Made by a program: the position numbers and the translations under genes. A stretch of 45,310 bases of DNA, taken from a virus. Taxonomy: Duplodnaviria; Caudoviricetes. The notes below the pieces were generated by a model that was not told the origin of the DNA, did not search any database, and saw only the letters and a list, made by a program, of their open reading frames with translations. The stretch covers positions 1 to 45,310 of IMG/VR virus record IMGVR_UViG_3300014613_000009; one strand, written 5' to 3'. The stretch's first letter is position 1; each line of letters begins with the position of its first letter. Below are positions 2,534-42,344 of this stretch, in pieces.

Positions 2534-2719
2534 ATGAGCAGAAAAATTGATATGGCCTTGGTCATCATTCTTGGGACTCTTTTGATTTGTGCCTGTATCT
2601 ATATATCTTATCAACAGGGAATTATCAGCACACTGCGAATAAATCTGAAACAATCTGATTTTTCTTTCTGGCAGTTGGCCGAAAGGAAAGAGTCGAATGA
2701 GGTGCAAAATGAAAACTAA
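2534..2719 (+). CDS. Small membrane protein
   Basis: N-terminal hydrophobic helix; AGGAG RBS. Confidence 0.65.
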   Translation: MSRKIDMALVIILGTLLICACIYISYQQGIISTLRINLKQSDFSFWQLAERKESNEVQNEN

Positions 2720-3380
2720 AATCAAATTTATTTTGTTAATGCTTTTGTTTTTGAGCTCGTCTGCAGAGGCAAAAGCTCTTATGAGTTTAACAACATTGAA
2801 TCTGATTGACCTTGAAAACTTCGTGAGAATCGACCCAAACGCGCCGGCCAAAGAGCAAAAAGAAATGCAGATGAATGGACTGGACTTTTTTGCCCGAAAC
2901 TATTTGTCGCCTTTTTTCTACGTTCCTACGGGAAAACTCAATCCCTGTTTCGGTTACAGATTGCCAAAAAGAGTAATGGTAAAGGTAGGAGGAGTAAAAC
3001 CTTGTTTTGATTGGATGGACGGTTTATCACCGGATGGCACGTATATATTAGTAACGGATAATACGGCCGGTCATTGGACAAACCTCTATTATAACGAGGA
3101 AACGGAACAGTATGAGATTTTGGGTTTTTCAGGAGAGGGATGGGCGTGGGTTGTAGATTACTTTGCCGATGATTATGGCAGCGGGCTTACTATTAAATGC
3201 TATTATTTCCCGCCCGGCGAGGACTATTATTCTTTCATAGGTTATGCCTTTAATGTCCAGATAACGGGGCATTGCGTATATGATTTTCTTGAAAAAGACG
3301 TTAATGGCAGCATATACACGGGCTGGAAATATGGCTGGGCAATGGTAACTCCTGCTCCTGACAGGAGACGGTGGCGGTAA
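2697..3380 (+). CDS. Exported protein of unknown function (start probably 2709)
   Basis: Signal peptide MKTKIKFILLMLLFLSSSAEA; aromatic, beta-rich mature part. Confidence 0.75.
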   Translation: MRCKMKTKIKFILLMLLFLSSSAEAKALMSLTTLNLIDLENFVRIDPNAPAKEQKEMQMNGLDFFARNYLSPFFYVPTGKLNPCFGYRLPKRVMVKVGGVKPCFDWMDGLSPDGTYILVTDNTAGHWTNLYYNEETEQYEILGFSGEGWAWVVDYFADDYGSGLTIKCYYFPPGEDYYSFIGYAFNVQITGHCVYDFLEKDVNGSIYTGWKYGWAMVTPAPDRRRWR

Positions 3381-3436
3381 TTTGAAAACTTAATAAACTG
3401 CTTTGGAATTATAAACTTTATTTGAAAGGATAACTT

Positions 3437-4501
3437 ATGAAAAAACTATTAACAATTTGTTTGGTCCTGCTTGTTGCAGGAATGGTAAGGGCTGATTATC
3501 TGATTGACCCTTTTGTGATTTGTGAGAGGGCTGGAGTTCAGGTATGGCCTGATATCTATGGAGATTATGTGGTCTATTATGATGACCAGGGTGATGCCAA
3601 CACAAACATCTATGGCTTTAAGATTTCAACCGGGGAAGAGTTTTTAATTTGTGATGCTAATGACAGGCAATTTTGTCCGGTTATCGGTGGTGATATAGTA
3701 GTATGGTGTGATTATAGGAATTATTATACTACTGGTGCAGACATATATGGCTATAACTTATTGACTCAGGAAGAATTTATTGTCTGCAATGAGATAGGTG
3801 ACCAAGTATTTCCTGCTATAAGTGAAGATGGTCGGACTGTTGTGTGGTCGGATAGCAGGAATGATAGTTTCGATATTTATGGCAGATATTTATACGAACC
3901 AAATTCATTTATGATATGTAACGCAGTAAGAACGCAATATATGCCTGCTATAGATAATGGATTTGTAGTTTGGTATGACCTCCGATTTAATAATTGGGAT
4001 ATTTATGGGGTTGACCTTATGTCAGGTCAGGTTGTTAATATAAGCCACGCTGGAGGGCAGATGTATCCTGATATAAGTAATAACTGGATTGTTTATATGG
4101 ATGACCCAACAGGACAGTTTTTAGATACCAATATCTATAGATATAACATAGGCACAGGAGCGAGAACATTGATAACCAATGCGTTTGCTTATCAGACCGG
4201 AGTAGTTATAGACCGAAATATCATTGTTTGGGCTGATTGTCGAAATGACTTTGGTAATATATATGGTTATGATTTAGACACCAATCAAGAGTTTCCAATT
4301 TGTATGGCATCAGGTGAGCAGCTCTTACCTGCCGTAAGTGGTGATGTAGTAGTTTGGACGGATAAGAGAAATGGTAATGAAGATATAATGGGAGCGCGTC
4401 TTGTTAGGAAAGCAGACGTTGATGGTGATTTGGATTATGATAGTGATGTTGACTTCGATGACTTTGCAATAATGGCACAAAACTGGTTGAAAACTTATTA
4501 A
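3437..4501 (+). CDS. Exported beta-propeller repeat protein (Methanosarcina surface-protein-type repeats) with C-terminal dockerin/EF-hand-like tail
   Basis: Signal peptide; about 7 repeats of Q..PAI.G..VVW.D.RN...DIYGYDL; tail DGDLDYDSDVDFDDFAIMAQNWL. Confidence 0.85.
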   Translation: MKKLLTICLVLLVAGMVRADYLIDPFVICERAGVQVWPDIYGDYVVYYDDQGDANTNIYGFKISTGEEFLICDANDRQFCPVIGGDIVVWCDYRNYYTTGADIYGYNLLTQEEFIVCNEIGDQVFPAISEDGRTVVWSDSRNDSFDIYGRYLYEPNSFMICNAVRTQYMPAIDNGFVVWYDLRFNNWDIYGVDLMSGQVVNISHAGGQMYPDISNNWIVYMDDPTGQFLDTNIYRYNIGTGARTLITNAFAYQTGVVIDRNIIVWADCRNDFGNIYGYDLDTNQEFPICMASGEQLLPAVSGDVVVWTDKRNGNEDIMGARLVRKADVDGDLDYDSDVDFDDFAIMAQNWLKTY

Positions 4502-34562: not shown

Positions 34563-34916
34563 CTATTTTACGGATTCAGCTTTAATTGAGCATAAATGCT
34601 GCAAATTAGTTTCGTCCATTGATTCTACTGTTTCGTGGTAATATTCGCAGCCGTTAGGCAAATAGTCAATGCAACTGCCTGTTATTTTATGTAAACACTT
34701 ATCACAATTAAACTTAAGATTAAATTTCTCCATTATTTTTATGGATTTTTTCCTTCTTTTTTGGGCTTTAACCTTATTATGATTTTTTATAAAGCAATCA
34801 TAGCAGTATTTATACTGATTATCTATTCGTTTACCACATACCAAACAGTTTCCTTTAAGATTGCCTTTGGTAAATGGTAGATACTTTAGATTGGTTATTT
34901 TTGTTGTTACTCTCAT
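34563..34916 (-). CDS. Zinc-finger-like basic protein
   Basis: CLVC...CYDC and CDKC...C...C motifs. Confidence 0.6.
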   Translation of the reverse strand: MRVTTKITNLKYLPFTKGNLKGNCLVCGKRIDNQYKYCYDCFIKNHNKVKAQKRRKKSIKIMEKFNLKFNCDKCLHKITGSCIDYLPNGCEYYHETVESMDETNLQHLCSIKAESVK

Positions 34917-35200
34917 ACTGCAGAGGGAGGTAGATTTGAGAGAGCAAGCCCTAACTATTTTAGGGCATTGTTAATACTGCATCGGTCGGTGAGTTCTCGG
35001 TCACAATTAGGCCACGTTTCACCCATTTTTGGGACAGTTAGCTCCAAGCTGTTCGGCCTATCAAAGCTCAAGTCGGTTTAACCGATACTTGGCATTAAGT
35101 AGGGTCGCTTAACGTCTTACTGTTGCCAGTTTTCAATGCCTCTGGCTTTGCAGCTTCCTTGCCCGCAGGCCAGTGCAGGTAGCAGCACTGAAATCAATTA
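34917..35200 (-). ncRNA. Candidate structured leader or ncRNA of the leftward transcript
   Basis: Non-coding and densely paired: TTTCAGTGCT/GGCATTGAAA, CGTTAAG/CTTAATG, TAGGCCG/TGGCCTA, GCCCTAA/TTAGGGC. Confidence 0.45.
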
Positions 35201-35207
35201 TGCTCTA

Positions 35208-35235
35208 AAAATACACTATCATTTTAGAAAGTCAA
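35208..35235 (-). promoter_or_regulatory. Sigma70-like leftward promoter
   Basis: TTGACT-16-TATTTT in the divergent intergenic region. Confidence 0.5.
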
Positions 35236-35338
35236 GCACAAAATTAAATTTTTTTTAGGTTTAATCGTTATAATCGCTAAAATCGGCATATTCAACCAAA
35301 AAAATTTAACAAATTCTATGATTTTGCTCAGATTTTTC

Positions 35339-35368
35339 TTGACGTGGTTATGGTCATTGTGGTAGACT
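35339..35368 (+). promoter_or_regulatory. Sigma70-like early promoter
   Basis: TTGACG-18-TAGACT with AT-rich upstream region. Confidence 0.7.
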
Positions 35369-35377
35369 GGGTATAGT

Positions 35378-35477
35378 TATGAATGATACAACGCTACAAT
35401 TAAACAGTCAAACTAACGCGGCCGGGCTGTCTTTGCACGCCGTGAGCGTTGTCTGTCATAACTGGCGGCCTGGCTGC
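35378..35477 (+). promoter_or_regulatory. Structured leader 1 (A-B-A'-B')
   Basis: ACAACGCT/AGCGTTGT interleaved with the 14-bp stem GCGGCCGGGCTGTC/GGCGGCCTGGCTGC. Confidence 0.6.
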
Positions 35478-35497
35478 TATTTTGGAAGGGTGAAAAG

Positions 35498-35656
35498 ATG
35501 ACAGTCAAAGAATTATATAATGAAGTTTCAAGGTTGGACGATTTTGGTGCAAACCGCAAAATCAAAATCAAAATGAGGCGAGGAAAAAAGATTATTGAAA
35601 AGGAATTAGTTTTGACTGGTTTGTATTCTGACGCAGTAGTATTAGAAACGAAGTAA
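35498..35656 (+). CDS. Early hypothetical protein (52 aa)
   Basis: GAAGGGTG RBS; MTVKELYNEV... Confidence 0.6.
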   Translation: MTVKELYNEVSRLDDFGANRKIKIKMRRGKKIIEKELVLTGLYSDAVVLETK

Positions 35657-35749
35657 CAGACCGCCTATCGGCCAAGGATGGCCTGCAATTATAAGCATTA
35701 AAGCTCTTTGACAAGTTAAGAATGGCTGGCGGAAAGTAAAGGGTGATTT

Positions 35750-36031
35750 ATGGCAAAATATAATCAATTTGCAGGGCGCACTGCCCAAAATTGGTGGGCG
35801 CGCTATAACGAAAGAATTGAAACCGCAAAAAAACAAATTATTGCTCTAAACCAAAAAGGAATTGCGATTACACTTAATCCGCCGCAAAAAATAGGCGGGC
35901 CGGGAGTGCCCGGAAATTGCACGAATCACATTACAGCAACTTTGGCCGGTAAAATTGTAACTCGCAAACAAATACGTAAACTTTGTTTGCAGGCAGGCGT
36001 AAAACTTAATGCTCACTCGCAACCAATTTAA
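35750..36031 (+). CDS. Early hypothetical protein
   Basis: AAGGGTG RBS. Confidence 0.65.
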   Translation: MAKYNQFAGRTAQNWWARYNERIETAKKQIIALNQKGIAITLNPPQKIGGPGVPGNCTNHITATLAGKIVTRKQIRKLCLQAGVKLNAHSQPI

Positions 36032-36129
36032 TTTTTTAGCTATAGAAAAATTAGCCAGCTATTCTTAATCTGCCACAGGGCAGGTTCTCTGAAAAGTTAA
36101 TAGCGGTCGGCAGATTGGAGGTATGATTT

Positions 36130-36312
36130 ATGATTAAGAAAAGCAAAATAGAAATTAAACAAAGAAAAGACGGCTGGTATTTGCACACGATTTCAACAAA
36201 AGGGAATGAATATGGGCAATTTTATTCTAACAACCCTGAAAAATCGAATTATGTGCCAGATGAAATTTATGCTGTTCAACGATTTATTAAGTTTTATAGT
36301 CAATTTGAATAG
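36130..36312 (+). CDS. Early hypothetical protein
   Basis: GGAGGT RBS. Confidence 0.65.
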   Translation: MIKKSKIEIKQRKDGWYLHTISTKGNEYGQFYSNNPEKSNYVPDEIYAVQRFIKFYSQFE

Positions 36313-36374
36313 CTGACCGCTATGCCCTTGCAGGTTATGGCCTGCTCTTGAGTCCGAGTCTCAAGCAAGGGTTT

Positions 36375-36611
36375 ATGAAAACCAAAGAATATAGAGGTAA
36401 TTGCGTTGATAATCCTTTTGGACGGATTGAAACACTTGTAGAAGTGGTCGAAAACGCCATTGAGATTACTAAGCAAACATTTTTTAAGCATTGTTTTATT
36501 CATTTAGATATTGCAAGACAAATGAGGCAGTTCCCAAATAATTATGAATTTTTCAAATATAAAGACATTTATTTTTATATTTGGTCTGCCATAGAGCATT
36601 TTTACTGGTAA
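36375..36611 (+). CDS. Early hypothetical protein
   Basis: Start at MKTKEY with AAGGG RBS; aromatic C-terminus YFYIWSAIEHFY. Confidence 0.65.
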   Translation: MKTKEYRGNCVDNPFGRIETLVEVVENAIEITKQTFFKHCFIHLDIARQMRQFPNNYEFFKYKDIYFYIWSAIEHFYW

Positions 36612-36653
36612 ATTGTATAAACTTTAACGGTTATTTGAGGATGAGGTGAAAAG

Positions 36654-36809
36654 ATGAAAACTGGATTATCAAAAAAGGAAAAGTTACAAATGCGAGAAAA
36701 GTATTGTGTAGCAGTTATTGCTTCGATAGACAGAGAATACTTTCGCAATAGAAAAATCTGGCAAAATAGATTACTAAAATGCCAGCAACAGCTTATTGAA
36801 ATTGCTTAA
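36654..36809 (+). CDS. Early hypothetical protein (51 aa)
   Basis: GAGGTG RBS. Confidence 0.55.
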   Translation: MKTGLSKKEKLQMREKYCVAVIASIDREYFRNRKIWQNRLLKCQQQLIEIA

Positions 36810-36827
36810 TATAGCGCAGCTTTTCTG

Positions 36828-36930
36828 TATGCCCCTGTCCCGGCAAAAGCGGGTGCTGATGCAGTATAAAAGTTGGGCAAATATCAGTTTGATTCTGATA
36901 GCCAAAAGCTGGCAGGACAGGGGCAGCAAC
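36828..36930 (+). repeat. Hairpin element TATGCCCCTGT...ACAGGGGCAGCAA, copy 1
   Basis: The same arms occur at 37626-37661 with a different loop. Confidence 0.7.
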
Positions 36931-36952
36931 TTTAATTCAGGAGGTATAAAAA

Positions 36953-37093
36953 ATGGACGCAGATAAACAGCATTATTATCAGGAACAGGAATTGGAAGAT
37001 TACGTTAGTTATGTTCAAGACAAAATTGATATGGACGAAATGCCTTTTACTTTTAAGGAATGGCAACAAGCAAATGTCGAGTGTGCTTATTAA
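36953..37093 (+). CDS. Early acidic hypothetical protein (46 aa)
   Basis: AGGAGGT RBS. Confidence 0.6.
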   Translation: MDADKQHYYQEQELEDYVSYVQDKIDMDEMPFTFKEWQQANVECAY

Positions 37094-37162
37094 AGATTTT
37101 GCCCGAAAAGTATAATAAGAATCAGATTGTTAAAGTTAAGTTTAATTTAGGAGGTATGAAAA

Positions 37163-37435
37163 ATGAGTAATTATACAAAAGGTAAATGGTTTAATAATGG
37201 CGGTCGAATATATGCTCAGCAAGGTGATGATATTCGGGAAATTTGTGATGTGGGCATAATAAATTCGCAAACGTTGGAAGATACAGCTAATGCCCGACTT
37301 ATAGCCGCCGCTCCAGATTTGTATGAGGCAACCAAAGCAGCCCAGATAATGTTATTGCAAACAAACTGGAATGGTGACGAAAGAATGAATATTATTGGGC
37401 AGGCCATCGCCAAGGCCGAAAAGGAGCAAAAATGA
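37163..37435 (+). CDS. Conserved phage protein of the ANARLIAAAP family
   Basis: YTKGKW...ANARLIAAAPDLYEA. Confidence 0.8.
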   Translation: MSNYTKGKWFNNGGRIYAQQGDDIREICDVGIINSQTLEDTANARLIAAAPDLYEATKAAQIMLLQTNWNGDERMNIIGQAIAKAEKEQK

Positions 37436-37596
37436 CTCATCAGGAATTTTTAGAGCAGCGATACGCAGACCTTGAGCGTTTGCAGCAAATCTACGGCGGC
37501 TTCATAGATACATTATTTGAGCTAATGCTGGGCGGCAAGATAGCCGAAGTTCAGTTGTATCAGATACTAAACCATTTGAAGGAAATTGAAGAATAA
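37432..37596 (+). CDS. Hypothetical protein (54 aa)
   Basis: AAGGAG RBS; ATGA overlap. Confidence 0.6.
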   Translation: MTHQEFLEQRYADLERLQQIYGGFIDTLFELMLGGKIAEVQLYQILNHLKEIEE

Positions 37597-37625
37597 TGCT
37601 TTTCATCACACCCTCCTAATCCGCT

Positions 37626-37667
37626 TATGCCCCTGTGCGGCGAAAAAAACAGGGGCAGCAATTATAA
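37626..37667 (+). repeat. Hairpin element TATGCCCCTGT...ACAGGGGCAGCAA, copy 2
   Basis: See copy 1; ends in GCAATTATAA. Confidence 0.7.
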
Positions 37668-37670
37668 TTT

Positions 37671-37901
37671 ATGAAAACTAAAAAACTGAAATTTAGAGTT
37701 GTAACTGGCCAACAAAATCCAGATATCAATAAGCTGCTGCGTTGCGCCGATTTAGCCAATGCCGCACTTATAGATGACGGCAGCGGATATATTGTTGAAT
37801 TAACCTGCAAGAAATCCGCAAGCGTCAAAAAAATAAAAGATGCCTTACAGAAAGCATTTGAGCAATACGGCTATTGCGTATTAGGAATTAAAAGGCGATA
37901 A
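37671..37901 (+). CDS. Hypothetical protein
   Basis: ORF directly after the hairpin element. Confidence 0.6.
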   Translation: MKTKKLKFRVVTGQQNPDINKLLRCADLANAALIDDGSGYIVELTCKKSASVKKIKDALQKAFEQYGYCVLGIKRR

Positions 37902-37902
37902 A

Positions 37903-38049
37903 ATGGATATAATTAGTTTATGGGTTGGTAGAGTTGTTATAATTTTTTGCTGTTTACTTACGATAGCCGTAGGAATAACAGCGGTATTTTATTGGATTGG
38001 CTACGCTATAGGCAGAGGTATTGCCGAATCCAAAAAAGAAACAGAATAA
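37903..38049 (+). CDS. Small membrane protein (48 aa)
   Basis: Hydrophobic stretch VVIIFCCLLTIAVGITAVFYWIGYAI. Confidence 0.55.
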   Translation: MDIISLWVGRVVIIFCCLLTIAVGITAVFYWIGYAIGRGIAESKKETE

Positions 38050-38075
38050 CCCCTGAAAATTTTTTCAAAAACCTC

Positions 38076-38103
38076 TTGCCTTGCGGCGGGGAGAAGGTAG
38101 AAT
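38076..38103 (+). promoter_or_regulatory. Sigma70-like promoter of the replication operon
   Basis: TTGCCT-16-TAGAAT. Confidence 0.6.
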
Positions 38104-38110
38104 TGAGGGC

Positions 38111-38206
38111 GATGAAGAATATAAGTTATAATTCAACAATATAAAGGCCAGAGGGTCAAACCCTTCAATTTGTATTCTTCATCCCCTTTGGCCTTTCTTT
38201 TTGTTT
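38111..38206 (+). promoter_or_regulatory. Structured leader 2 (A-B-A'-B'), attenuator-like
   Basis: 17-bp GATGAAGAATATAAGTT/AATTTGTATTCTTCATC interleaved with 13-bp AAAGGCCAGAGGG/CCCTTTGGCCTTT plus a U-tract. Confidence 0.7.
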
Positions 38207-38218
38207 ATAAATGCAACT

Positions 38219-38893
38219 ATGACGCAGGGATGGGCTTGCAATTGGCGGCAGATAAAAGACTGGGAATGGTATAAAACGCCTAATATGGCTCATTTATTTC
38301 AACATTTAATAAGAGAAGCCAATCACGAACCCAAAAAATGGCAAGGAATAATGATTGAAAGAGGCCAATTTGTAACAGGCCAATTAGTCTTATCTGCCGA
38401 AACGGGATTGAGCAGACATCAAATACGCACTTGTCTTGCTAATCTTAAATCTACTGGCGAAATCAAGATAAAATCAACCAACAAATATAGCATTGTAACT
38501 ATTTGTAATTACAATACTTATCAAGATAAACCACCAGCAGAGGGCCAGCAAGAGGGCCAGCAGAGGGCCAGCAGAGGGCCAGCAGAGGGCCACAACCAAC
38601 AATTAAACAATGAAAACAATGAGAACAAGTTTAACAAAACTATATATAGGAAAAAACCTACAAAAGAGGAATTTCTCCAGTATATTGAAGAAAATAAACT
38701 TAACATTTGGAGTCCCGAAGGACTCTATGACGGCTATAACGATGGTGGGTGGATTGATACGCGGGGCAAGCCGGTTAAGAACTGGAAACTAAAACTTCGG
38801 ACGTTAAGTAATTTGGCGGATGAAAAAAATGACAATAGAAAAGATAGGTCATTTAGTAAATCAAGTGCTATTGGACGCAGAATTGAAGTGTGA
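38219..38893 (+). CDS. Phage replication initiator (lambda O-like, HTH)
   Basis: W..W.WY...HLF.HL...ANH, RGQFVTG...LS.ETGLS...IRT.L..L; internal iterons; next to a DnaC-like gene. Confidence 0.85.
   Translation: MTQGWACNWRQIKDWEWYKTPNMAHLFQHLIREANHEPKKWQGIMIERGQFVTGQLVLSAETGLSRHQIRTCLANLKSTGEIKIKSTNKYSIVTICNYNTYQDKPPAEGQQEGQQRASRGPAEGHNQQLNNENNENKFNKTIYRKKPTKEEFLQYIEENKLNIWSPEGLYDGYNDGGWIDTRGKPVKNWKLKLRTLSNLADEKNDNRKDRSFSKSSAIGRRIEV
38534..38592 (+). repeat. Iteron array (5 x CCAGCAGAGGG), probable replication origin
   Basis: Five tandem 11/12-mers inside the initiator gene, followed by an A-rich tract. Confidence 0.8.
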
Positions 38894-39524
38894 GCGTTGC
38901 AGGACCCGGCTGGCATATAAGGGCAAAAAATGGTGCAAGCGTTGCCAGCAGTGGTGGTATCGGCGCAATCACAAAGAGGAAACATTGAAAAACCTGCAAA
39001 ATATGCTCGAATTAAGATATTATCAGGCAAAATTGTATCATCTGCACAAAAATATAATCAGGGAATTTCAGCAAATGCCCGATGAGCAGGGAGTTATGCT
39101 CTGGGGGGATATTGGTTGTGGGAAAACTTATGCCATATCCGCCCTTGCCAGACGATTTTATATACAGGGCTGGGATGTTATTTTTATTCGCTGGTATGAA
39201 TTGACCCTGCAAATAAGACAGGCATACAGCAAAAATCAGTCCGAATGGGATATAATTAAGCCGTTTTGCAGGGTGGACAAATTATTTATAGATGATATAG
39301 GCGTAACAGTAAGCAGGGATTCGCAGGAATCTGATTTTAGCGTGCGGACGCTGGACTTAATACTCGATAAGCGTCTTGCGAATTATAAGCCGACTTTTTT
39401 CACGTCTAATCACAATATCGAAGATTTATCAAAAACCTTTGATGAGCGAATTGCCAGCAGAATACAGCAAGATTGCTTAATCCTGCAATTAAAAGGCAAA
39501 GACAAACGTATTCTCGGTGCATAG
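38820..39524 (+). CDS. DnaC/IstB-like helicase loader ATPase
   Basis: Walker A GDIGCGKT, Walker B LFIDDIG, TSN, RIASRI; N-terminal CxxC pairs. Confidence 0.9.
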   Translation: MKKMTIEKIGHLVNQVLLDAELKCERCRTRLAYKGKKWCKRCQQWWYRRNHKEETLKNLQNMLELRYYQAKLYHLHKNIIREFQQMPDEQGVMLWGDIGCGKTYAISALARRFYIQGWDVIFIRWYELTLQIRQAYSKNQSEWDIIKPFCRVDKLFIDDIGVTVSRDSQESDFSVRTLDLILDKRLANYKPTFFTSNHNIEDLSKTFDERIASRIQQDCLILQLKGKDKRILGA

Positions 39525-39570
39525 AGCGATATATGCAAAAGAAAGATAAAGTTTAAGCGAAGGATAACCT

Positions 39571-40897
39571 ATGACCCTGACCGCACAAGAAGCGAAAGAG
39601 ATAGCCAAAGACGGCAGGATTGACGGTCTGGTCAATCAGATTATCGAAGGCAATGCCCTTGATGTTATGGCTGATATGCCGGCGGAGTCGGTGAATTGTA
39701 TGATTACTTCAGTTCCTTATTGGGGCTTACGAAAATATAATTGTCCCGTTCAATGGCCCGATGGCTGGTTTGGTGAGCTTGGCCTTGAGCCGACTATAGA
39801 ATTATACATCGAGCATTTAATGATGGTATTCGACCAAGCAAAAAGAGTCCTGCGAAAAGATGGAATCTGTTTTGTGAATATAGGAGATTCCTATGGCGGA
39901 CATAGAGTCAGTAAACAATGGGCAGAAAATGCTCCGAATAAGAAATTGGCCGATTCTGTTTGGCGAATGGATTGTCGAGATAATCAATATCTTGCAGCAA
40001 GCCAACCAATGCAAAAAGGATTACCTGATAAAGCAATGTGTAACATACCTGAAAAATTTTGTATTGCGATGGAGCAGCACGGTTGGATTAAACGCTGTAA
40101 TATCATCTGGGCGAAGGGATTATCCTTTTGTGATAAATATAGCGGTTCTTGTATGCCGGATTCTGCCAAAGACCGCCCGAACAAAAACAGCTTTGAATGG
40201 GTGTATATGTTCACTAAATCAAAGCATTACTGGTATGAGCAACAATTCGAGGAAGCCGCTTATGATGGACGAAACGATACTACATTAAAACCAACGGATA
40301 TGTATTCTGGCCGAAATTTTACTCCGCAAAAAATGGAACGGGAACCAATGGAGCGTTGGCCGAATGAATTAGGTCGCACAATCCGCAATGTCTGGGCGAT
40401 AAATCCTCAACCGTTTCCTGATGCCCATTTCGCAACTTTCCCTGAGAAGTTGGTTGAGCCGATGATTAAAATGGGCTGCCCTGAATTTGTCTGCAAGAAG
40501 TGTGGTAAGGCAAGAGAAAAGATTTATGATGTAGATTATATCTCTGCTGGCGGTAAAGGTCAGGAAAAATATGGAGATAATACGCCCAATGATGGTAGTA
40601 ATCCGGGCCCACAGGGAATGAAACACGGTAGAGCAAATGCACAAAGAATTGAAATGGGTTATACCGATTGCGGCTGCAACGCAGGATGGAGGTCGGGCGT
40701 TACGCTCGATTGCTTTCGGTGGTTCTGGAACAGTAGGTGTAGTGGCAGCCAGATTAAAACGAGATTATATCCTGATAGAATTGCAGCATAATTATATTAA
40801 AATGGCAGAGGAAAGACTAAAGGCAGTTGAACTTAATATCCCGGTTCAAGAGCAAAGAATCGGGCAGTTAGCGTTATTCGGCGAAAAGGAGAAATGA
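39571..40897 (+). CDS. N6A/N4C DNA methyltransferase (beta class), interrupted by a +1 frameshift near 40714-40719
   Basis: SVPY catalytic motif; HFATFP; motif I is split as LDCF | GGSGTVG across ORFs 39571-40791 and 40637-40897. Confidence 0.85.
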
Positions 40898-41580
40898 TGA
40901 AATCTAATATGTATTCTTTAAGTGTTAAAAGCTGGTCGCCTTTTGTTGGCTGTAATTATGATTGTTCCTATTGCAAAAAATCTTTTAAGGCACAAGCAAA
41001 GAGACAAAAGCATAATTGTAAGTTATGTTTTGAATATATTCCTCATTATCATCCAGAACGTCTTGACCAGCCGTTGCCAAAAACGGGTTATCTGCAATTT
41101 ATATTTTGTTGCCCCTTTGGTGATATTTCATTTTGTTCTACAGAGTATCTCTGGAAAATAATTGCCAGAATCCGTCACGAAAAAGATAAAACTTTTCTCA
41201 TTCAGTCCAAAAATCCGAAAACTTTTGAGCGGGTTAATTGGCCTGATAATGTGATTCTGGGGACAACAATAGAGACAAATCGGGACGTGTTTTATCAACT
41301 TAGTGATATTTCTAAAGCACCAAGACCTGATAGCCGTTGCAATGATTTTGTTAATATAAAACATTCTCGCAAAATGATTACCATAGAACCTGCTATAGAT
41401 TTTGATGTCAAAGAAATGATTTATAGAACAAATGCGTTAAACCCTTGTATAGTCTGGATAGGTTACGACTCAAAGAAAAACAATCTACCAGAACCGCCAC
41501 TCGAAAAAGTTAAAGAGCTATACTGGCAATTAGGCAATTTAGGAATCCCTGTTATTTTGAAGAAAATGCGGGTTTTATAA
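40894..41580 (+). CDS. DUF5131/Gp37Gp68-like radical SAM-fold protein
   Basis: WSPFVGCNYDCSYC; SKNP; WPDNVILGTTIE; ITIEP. Confidence 0.8.
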   Translation: MMKSNMYSLSVKSWSPFVGCNYDCSYCKKSFKAQAKRQKHNCKLCFEYIPHYHPERLDQPLPKTGYLQFIFCCPFGDISFCSTEYLWKIIARIRHEKDKTFLIQSKNPKTFERVNWPDNVILGTTIETNRDVFYQLSDISKAPRPDSRCNDFVNIKHSRKMITIEPAIDFDVKEMIYRTNALNPCIVWIGYDSKKNNLPEPPLEKVKELYWQLGNLGIPVILKKMRVL

Positions 41581-41619
41581 GTATTTATACTGATTTTTAA
41601 TAATCCAAGGATTTTTTTC

Positions 41620-41647
41620 TTGACTTTTGAGAATAATATGGTAAGTT
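41620..41647 (+). promoter_or_regulatory. Sigma70-like promoter
   Basis: TTGACT-16-TAAGTT with an upstream T-tract, as at 35339. Confidence 0.55.
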
Positions 41648-41667
41648 AAGATTACTATGATTAAAGA

Positions 41668-41749
41668 CCGAGAAGCAAATAATGAAATTAAGACCACCCG
41701 TTGCGGCTTCGACTCTATGCTTCTCGGCAACGATAGAGCTGCGACGGGT
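41668..41749 (+). promoter_or_regulatory. Structured leader 3 (A-B-A'-B')
   Basis: CCGAGAAGCA/TGCTTCTCGG interleaved with the 13-bp stem ACCCGTTGCGGCT/AGCTGCGACGGGT. Confidence 0.65.
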
Positions 41750-41887
41750 TTGCACGCTACAGGCGGTGCAGATTTCACCTTACTTATCTCTCCGCCTTTT
41801 AGTCAACGAACAGCCGGAACACCTTCCTCAAATATCTCGCTTTCCGCAATCTCCGGCTGTTCCTCTTTTTGACAGAAAGGATAATTT

Positions 41888-42115
41888 ATGAACATAGAGA
41901 CATTAAATAGTGTTTGTGTAGGAGATATTCCGCAAATAGTAAGGAATCAAATGAAAGATAAAATAGCAAACAAAGACGAATATAGAGACGCTATGAGATT
42001 AAAATTAGCTATCAATGACTTTCTGTGGGCATATTTGCCTATGAAAACCACTTTAAGAAAAGCAGAAATAATTGCTTGCAAGATATTTGGACTAATTCGT
42101 GAAAACTCTGACTAA
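41888..42115 (+). CDS. Hypothetical protein
   Basis: GAAAGGA RBS following a long hairpin (GAACAGCCGGA/TCCGGCTGTTC). Confidence 0.65.
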   Translation: MNIETLNSVCVGDIPQIVRNQMKDKIANKDEYRDAMRLKLAINDFLWAYLPMKTTLRKAEIIACKIFGLIRENSD

Positions 42116-42344
42116 TAACCTTTTCTGTTTTCGCAAGGATGGGCGGCCATCGGGACAAAGGAGTGTCCGTATTCTGTCGGTGGCCGCATTTTAAGGAATA
42201 AATTATGAGCAAAAAAATATATTGGGTGGGATTCAAAAGAAATAAGCCCATTCCGATATTATGGCGGAATAAAAAATTGGCAAAAATTGTTTTTGAAGAT
42301 GTCCGTCCTGTAGAAATTCGGGAAATTAAAAAGAGAAAATCCAA

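Follow-up and report, generated by a model that had tools for sequence, protein, structure and literature searches.

The early leaders of a groundwater phage

We describe here a recurring RNA layout in the leaders of an uncultured tailed phage (Caudoviricetes; IMG/VR record IMGVR_UViG_3300014613_000009). The window, that is, the whole stretch of DNA analysed (45,310 nt), is a complete circular phage genome with a terminal repeat of 123 bases, and groundwater metagenomes are its source. According to PHROGs, the minus strand encodes the head, portal, tail and terminase proteins, and the plus strand carries small early genes, a DnaD/O-like replication initiator, DnaC, a methyltransferase, an exonuclease and RusA. 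Each of three predicted rightward promoters is followed by a leader in which a 5' segment, A, is complementary to A', a segment in the loop of a downstream hairpin with the arms B and B'. This A-B-A'-B' order, which an earlier note on this DNA had proposed, is borne out: all twelve segments are present and pair. Each leader also holds an upstream open reading frame (uORF) that begins close to the predicted start site. The features are as follows.

35339..35368, + strand: promoter 1, predicted sigma70 site (TTGACG-18-TAGACT, extended TG), predicted start about 35375
35375..35395, + strand: leader 1 segment A, including the ATG at 35379
35379..35501, + strand: uORF 1, 40 codons, running through the hairpin; its stop overlaps the ATG of the gene at 35498-35656
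35418..35431, + strand: leader 1 arm B, with an alternative long-range partner at 35673-35685, around the first gene
35445..35463, + strand: leader 1 segment A', in the hairpin loop and abutting B'
35464..35484, + strand: leader 1 arm B' (to 35477) plus a short U-rich tail (5 U in 9)
38076..38103, + strand: promoter 2, predicted (TTGCCT-16-TAGAAT)
38111..38127, + strand: leader 2 segment A, including the ATG at 38112
38112..38144, + strand: uORF 2, 10 codons; its stop overlaps the first bases of arm B
38143..38155, + strand: leader 2 arm B
38167..38183, + strand: leader 2 segment A', with B' directly after it
38184..38206, + strand: leader 2 arm B' (to 38196) plus a U-tract (7 U in 9)
38219..38893, + strand: replication initiator, DnaD/O-like (PHROGs)
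38820..39524, + strand: DnaC-like helicase loader (PHROGs, Pfam)
41620..41647, + strand: promoter 3, predicted (TTGACT-16-TAAGTT, extended TG)
41655..41677, + strand: leader 3 segment A, with its core at 41668-41677 and a weak 5' extension over the ATG that pairs with 41732-41735
41657..41872, + strand: uORF 3, 71 codons, crossing all three hairpins of leader 3; its stop lies at the end of the last U-run
41696..41709, + strand: leader 3 arm B
41718..41727, + strand: leader 3 segment A'
41736..41749, + strand: leader 3 arm B', without a good U-tract
41761..41872, + strand: leader 3, two more hairpins that are predicted to carry U-runs (41761-41797 and 41808-41862, the latter with a 33-base loop)
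41777..41806, − strand: antisense promoter-like site (TTGACT-18-TAAGGT) facing leader 3, not conserved in the family

The predicted energies of A/A' and B/B' are −21.3 and −29.8 kcal/mol in leader 1, −26.4 and −23.5 kcal/mol in leader 2, and −18.4 and −26.0 kcal/mol in leader 3; five of the six duplexes are stronger as plus-strand RNA through G-U pairs, the exception being A/A' of leader 3. In every leader, A starts close to where transcription is predicted to begin, and A' reaches B' or stops just short of it: in leader 1 the pairing reaches 35375 with 35463, so that A' adjoins B', and in leader 3 the arrangement holds only via the weak four-base extension. The ATGs at 35379, 38112 and 41657 lie 9–11 bases past the −10 hexamers of their promoters. 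The earlier description of these codons as overlapping A or just before it is accurate for leaders 1 and 2, where they lie inside A, and too generous for leader 3, where the ATG lies 11 bases upstream of the core of A. The U-tract that had been seen after B' of leader 2 is present, and the two additional hairpins of leader 3 were absent from the earlier note. The loop of the last of these (41819-41851, 33 bases, pyrimidine-rich) has its own antisense strand as its only strong partner in the genome, and a second frame in leader 3 (41682-41891) overlaps the ATG of the gene at 41888-42115. That the leaders share no sequence does not hold for leaders 1 and 2, which align collinearly with a score of 61 versus 35.9 for shuffled sequences (0 of 500 shuffles as high; 9 of 500 under a block-wise null), and these two are probably paralogous as judged from this alignment.

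How easily does such a layout arise by chance? The bare topology without a promoter is common: a promoter-free scan of the window returned 56 helix pairs on the plus and 47 on the minus strand, with 22–37 loci in shuffled sequences, and is not specific. When a sigma70-like promoter was required, the scan returned the three leaders and one minus-strand mirror of leader 3, as against a mean of 0.25 and a maximum of 2 in 40 shuffles. The thresholds of this promoter-anchored scan were chosen after the leaders were known, and the real test is therefore recurrence in other phages.

Recurrence in other phages and the reading frame

Relatives of the replication initiator were collected, and 31 loci were scanned up to 520 bases upstream of the gene. 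The layout was found, spelled in different letters, in eight of them (L010, L011, L020, L024, L027, L030, L032 and L038), with shuffled sequences scoring at 0–20% per locus; visual inspection added leaders at L019 and L026 and a less clear one at L039. Within the same 520 bases, the eight loci returned by an initial single-sequence search gave no leader save a weak match at L007, which ends inside the initiator gene, and three GenBank phage initiator regions likewise gave none. A stricter scan over about 308 kb outside the window returned 11 sites, where about 1.7 were expected, and two copies each were found in two other records and one contig. Independent viral sites with a promoter and an ATG scored in 5 of 126 cases versus 7 of 1260 shuffled ones; none of 110 viral promoter sites sampled without the ATG condition scored. 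The three convincing matches of this independent sample precede a protein with a DnaB_2 replication-initiation domain, an HNH nuclease and a cut open reading frame without a Pfam match. The leader at L038 likewise precedes an HNH gene, and with such genes behind it in other phages the module resembles a portable unit for dosing. A degenerate DNA search pattern built on the initiator was also tried and rejected, having returned two known loci and four unrelated ones.

Two loci deserve separate mention. At L024 (2276-2386), the leader is followed by a tRNA-like sequence (RF00005, 31.5 bits) and then by the initiator gene. Upstream of the initiators of L029 and L031 stands a long hairpin with a U-tract and an ATG ahead of it, possibly a variant leader, which the scan left unscored.

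For quantitative comparison, 22 leaders were curated: the three of the window, ten of the eleven outside matches of the stricter scan (L041 was dropped), four recognised by eye, three of the five independent promoter-plus-ATG matches (L071 and L085 were dropped) and two more. L120 and five loose matches were left out as irregular, so that the statistics are those of the set without them. The geometry of the set is tight. The distance from predicted start to the end of B' is 84–98 bases in 18 of 22 leaders, the gap between A' and B' is at most 3 bases in 14 of 22, and the linker from B to A' is at least 6 bases in 19 of 20 (median 11), which by our estimate suffices to span the A:A' helix, so that both helices could coexist. 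At least five U in the nine bases after B' are found in 13 of 22; a clear stem followed by a U-tract marks leader 2 and most leaders of replication genes, leader 1 is marginal, and leader 3 is weak at B' with U-tailed hairpins later on. Among 20 leaders, the plus strand pairs better in 14 B helices (the minus strand in 2) and in 16 A helices (the minus strand in 4), and A has its own A' as its best partner in 18 of 20, with a mean of −21.5 kcal/mol within and −8.5 kcal/mol between leaders. The selection on structure that had been proposed from the window alone is upheld by this specificity and by the recurrence in other letters, and the layout is almost certainly a real conserved RNA element.

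The position of the start codon and the frame behind it can be read directly, as can the helices and their recurrence. An ATG lies 7–13 bases after the −10 box in 19 of the 22 curated leaders and in 16 of the 19 that were not selected for an ATG, compared with a background of 10 in 110 unselected promoter sites; in 18 of the 19 leaders that have it, the ATG falls within the A:A' helix. Only one of the 19 ATG frames stops before codon 10, versus 13 and 12 in the other two frames and 9.8 in shuffles. Once near-homologues and the rows chosen for their ATG are removed, early stops number 0 of 14 where 7.5 were expected (0 of 2000 simulations). The frame remains open through B' in 12 of 19 leaders (5.6 expected, P 0.001), and the stops of the seven short uORFs fall around the first base of B, from 18 bases upstream of it to 9 bases downstream. 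Several long uORFs end at the next start codon or about 20 bases from it (window leader 1, L020, L030, L038 and L042). The 19 peptides differ in length and have no common motif, residue or amino-acid bias; among the eight commonest codons only AAT exceeds shuffles (17 versus 9, P 0.004, uncorrected), and sensing through the rare codon AUA was rejected as unsupported (12 versus 8.7, P 0.14). Thus, the act of translation seems to count and not its product. As masking A alone would not need ten open codons, ribosomes must, on this reasoning, travel to arm B. The open ATG frame is, among these sequence features, the best evidence for ribosomes in the mechanism; the role that the earlier note had suggested for uORF translation gains support from the same statistics, and coupling to ribosomes, in one polarity or the other, is likely.

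How the leaders may work

The reading that we tentatively favour, a little short of an even chance in our judgement, is that each leader is an attenuator with translation-dependent readthrough, composed of a uORF that is predicted to be leaderless, the terminator-like hairpin B:B' and the predicted fold-back A:A' that would hide the AUG. Transcription would begin at or just before the AUG, and a ribosome could load only until A' leaves the polymerase, some 70–90 bases later. A loaded ribosome would move at least 10 codons and cover arm B, whether it halts at a stop codon next to B or continues across the hairpin; with B covered no hairpin would form, the operon would be read through, and long uORFs would pass the ribosome on to the next gene. 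Without loading, A:A' would lock the AUG, B:B' would form, and an RNA of about 95 bases, silenced by A:A', would be released; from leaders with long uORFs it would presumably carry no stop codon. Such a switch would dose the replication and other early genes by the capacity of the host for leaderless initiation, without a repressor. Two lines of published work are in keeping with this scheme. In E. coli, a ribosome at a stop codon near a terminator represses the terminator almost fully (PMC4824070), and leaderless initiation is inhibited by structure around the start codon (PMC9031893), so that A:A' would put an end to loading. The transcription starts, the translation of the uORFs, the termination and its polarity are predictions from the layout.

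Several observations weigh against this attenuator. B' is followed by only 3 U in 9 bases in leader 3, a poor terminator, and U-tracts are weak in 9 of the 22 leaders, which speaks against all termination models alike. The predicted minimum fold of leader 1 is A:A' (−35.6, versus −32.0 for the terminator fold), and A' leaves the polymerase ahead of B', which, together with the guanidine-IV riboswitch, whose terminator is impeded by pairing to its loop (PMC11611296), favours the opposite polarity. The ATG is absent in 3 of 22 leaders (L032, L039 and L003), and the curated set was partly chosen by eye. Covariation is weak as well: the one well-aligned homologous pair (L010/L019) has two compensated pairs against 3 of 54 unpaired cells, and 142 of 500 shuffles reach as high. 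Nine aligned leaders have no conserved columns in their helices, MAFFT having failed to register these divergent sequences, and since a single-sequence search of viral contigs with the terminase returned no relative, there is no close phage for column-wise covariation. Contigs from two RNA and two DNA runs held no variants, the RNA contigs being too sparse to show starts or ends.

The alternative that survives best, although we consider it unlikely, reverses the default: A:A' would form first and sterically block the terminator, as the polymerase would still hold B', which could make no more than one turn around B within the closed loop, and readthrough would be the rule. A ribosome on the first codons would then free B:B' and stop transcription, a fast ribosome would reach B, and the leader would act as a brake under slow translation. 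A' precedes and abuts B' at the close spacing given above, co-transcriptional folding yields A:A' first in all three window leaders, and the open frame is compatible. The literature offers precedents in guanidine-IV (PMC11611296) and in whiB7, where efficient uORF translation favours the terminator (10.1101/2023.06.02.543512). A pure blocker would, however, do better with a very short linker from B to A', yet the linker is at least 6 bases in 19 of 20 leaders, and in guanidine-IV the terminator wins as its stem grows longer unless the ligand is bound (PMC11611296).

Two further explanations appear improbable to a similar degree. In autoregulation resembling P4 immunity, loop A' of a released leader would act in trans, pairing with segment A of RNAs newly made from that promoter, and would promote termination, giving delayed, phage-specific negative feedback or immunity. 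The A:A' pairs are indeed specific to each leader and each phage, PHROGs and Pfam revealed no repressor gene, and the P4 CI RNA, itself a cleavage product of the transcript in question, brings about termination by pairing with seqA and seqC (PMC4825925). The conserved ATG and open frame would be left unexplained by this scheme, the own A of such an RNA would compete in cis, neither a second target like seqC nor an Rfam match to the C4 family was seen, and the P4 region itself gave one weak match with a poor promoter and another geometry. Alternatively, the leaders may exert translational or stability control without regulated termination, with A:A' hiding the AUG and protecting the 5' end and the uORF only delivering ribosomes to the next gene. 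This would suit the weak U-tracts in 9 of 22 leaders and the long uORFs that stop at or near the next start codon (leader 1, L020, L030, L038 and L042), but seven uORFs have their stop near B, a long way ahead of the next gene, and stem plus U-tract are clear in leader 2 and most replication-gene leaders.

Attenuation by an antisense countertranscript on A, as in pT181/pIP501, is very improbable: leader 2 does precede a replication initiator and convergent promoter-like sites occur at leaders 1 and 3 (scores 11.5 and 11.3), but only 2 of 20 leaders reach a score of 11.2, equal to the background of 10.6%, leader 2 is not among them, and the pre-emptor of pT181 pairs with a stem arm (PMC5703833) where A pairs with the loop. 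A 10-of-12 promoter match points leftward within leader 1 (35411-35383, − strand), its predicted start at almost the same base as that of the rightward promoter. As for the trans factor that had been raised earlier, a shared trans-acting RNA finds no support, in that the three leaders do not cross-pair (−18 to −21 kcal/mol with themselves, −4 to −10 kcal/mol with one another) and antisense promoters are unconserved. Nor did the A segments of these leaders have a conspicuous trans partner in common: beyond their own loci, the best sites (−18 to −23) come near the cis value.

Genomic setting, known systems and implications

The absence of a visible repressor, which the earlier note had stressed, agrees with our searches: neither a repressor nor an integrase was identified among 63 open reading frames by PHROGs or 50 by Pfam, although very short or divergent repressors could escape. 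One weak Pfam match to an integrase N-terminal SAM-like domain (E 0.003, below the cut-off) is located in the exonuclease. Inside the initiator gene, spaced repeats of 11–12 bp (38528-38592) are likely origin iterons. The DNA methyltransferase gene (39571-40897) appears frameshifted, PHROG 67 matching 39571-40791 and 40637-40897 in two frames. The protein at 3437-4501 looks secreted, and most of the Atlas clusters nearest to it belong to Planctomycetota, a hint at the phage host; it is the second of two probable secreted proteins (2697-4501), has a predicted propeller-like fold and Planctomycetota neighbours, some of which carry dockerin domains, and both proteins are probably host-derived.

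Other RNA features surround the early genes. Each of the first three small early genes is enclosed by a long-range stem (35423-35435/35673-35685, 35715-35730/36054-36069 and 36100-36111/36312-36323) resembling the processing stems of rRNA, and ahead of two of them lie motifs that we take to be boxA-like (35703-35714 and 36084-36095); together, these may point to antitermination or to processing of the transcript into RNAs of one gene each. Between early genes, at 36828-36925 and 37626-37660, stands a repeated TGCCCCTG...CAGGGGCA hairpin whose loop differs in length. On the minus strand, at 35235-34917, a leftward promoter-like site is followed by a 285-base leader without a long open reading frame, which folds modestly better than shuffles (z −1.9) and lacks the A-B-A'-B' order.

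We would further like to place the leaders in the context of known attenuators. Rfam 15 covariance models gave no match in the window at the gathering threshold, none at E ≤ 1 in 34800-42200, and only a tRNA in 12 loci; neither a C4-type fold or sequence (P4 CI/P1 C4, c4-a1b1) nor guanidine-IV/mepA was matched. In pyrBI of E. coli, the leader frame pyrL of about 40 codons reportedly crosses the terminator, and the trailing ribosome is thought to prevent the hairpin. The present uORFs likewise reach or cross the terminator stem (12 of 19 cross it and 7 stop near B), as in pyrBI and other ribosome-repressed terminators (PMC4824070), but they differ in several respects: the frame is predicted to be leaderless, the loop of the terminator has its partner in the region of the start codon, a conserved pause motif for nucleotide sensing is missing, and the genes concerned serve phage replication or encode HNH proteins. 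The riboswitch guanidine-IV (mepA) shares a similar length and a 5' segment that pairs with the terminator loop, not its stem (PMC11611296); it differs in that A is here an open 5' end and not a hairpin loop, the helix has 10–22 bp, the start codon lies in A, and ligand-binding bases are not conserved. In whiB7/wblC, too, the translation status of a uORF decides between terminator and antiterminator (10.1101/2023.06.02.543512), whereas the present leaders are much shorter, have no amino-acid bias in the uORF, and use loop pairing in place of arm exchange. The P4 CI/P1 C4 RNA is a phage leader whose 5' end is complementary to its own downstream part and which controls termination before replication genes (PMC4825925); here, by contrast, C4-family matches and a second target were not seen, three orthogonal copies occur per genome, and an ATG frame is conserved. 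With pT181/pIP501 the leaders would have attenuation ahead of a replication initiator in common (PMC5703833), but no antisense promoter is conserved here and A does not pair with a stem arm. A literature search that covered few subscription papers found no description of this layout in phages, in the parts of the sources available. An unnamed candidate among those of two motif surveys (PMC2864571 and PMC10690425) may overlap this leader family. The family is best filed as a new form of ribosome-coupled attenuation, uncatalogued in Rfam, with a leaderless start site as the partner of the terminator loop.

What would such leaders mean for the phage? As they head all three predicted rightward early operons, it is plausible from their placement that they are its main regulator, standing here in place of the expected repressor; in uncultured phages more generally, they precede dose-sensitive genes such as replication initiators and HNH nucleases. 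A bolder proposal, about which we are doubtful, is that such switches form a class of their own, widespread and free of any fixed sequence: the leaderless start of the RNA itself would pair into the terminator loop, set the time for ribosome loading and control every rightward early operon of a phage that lacks a repressor. If this were true, the phage would read the translation capacity of its host directly before committing to replication, and sensing of leaderless initiation would link phage commitment to the translation state of the host. The leaders would also make up a family of regulatory RNAs that escapes catalogues built on sequence, as it is chiefly the geometry and the open ATG frame that are kept, and would supply a set of compact, mutually orthogonal switches, for whose testing an ordinary sigma70 polymerase and a reporter suffice.

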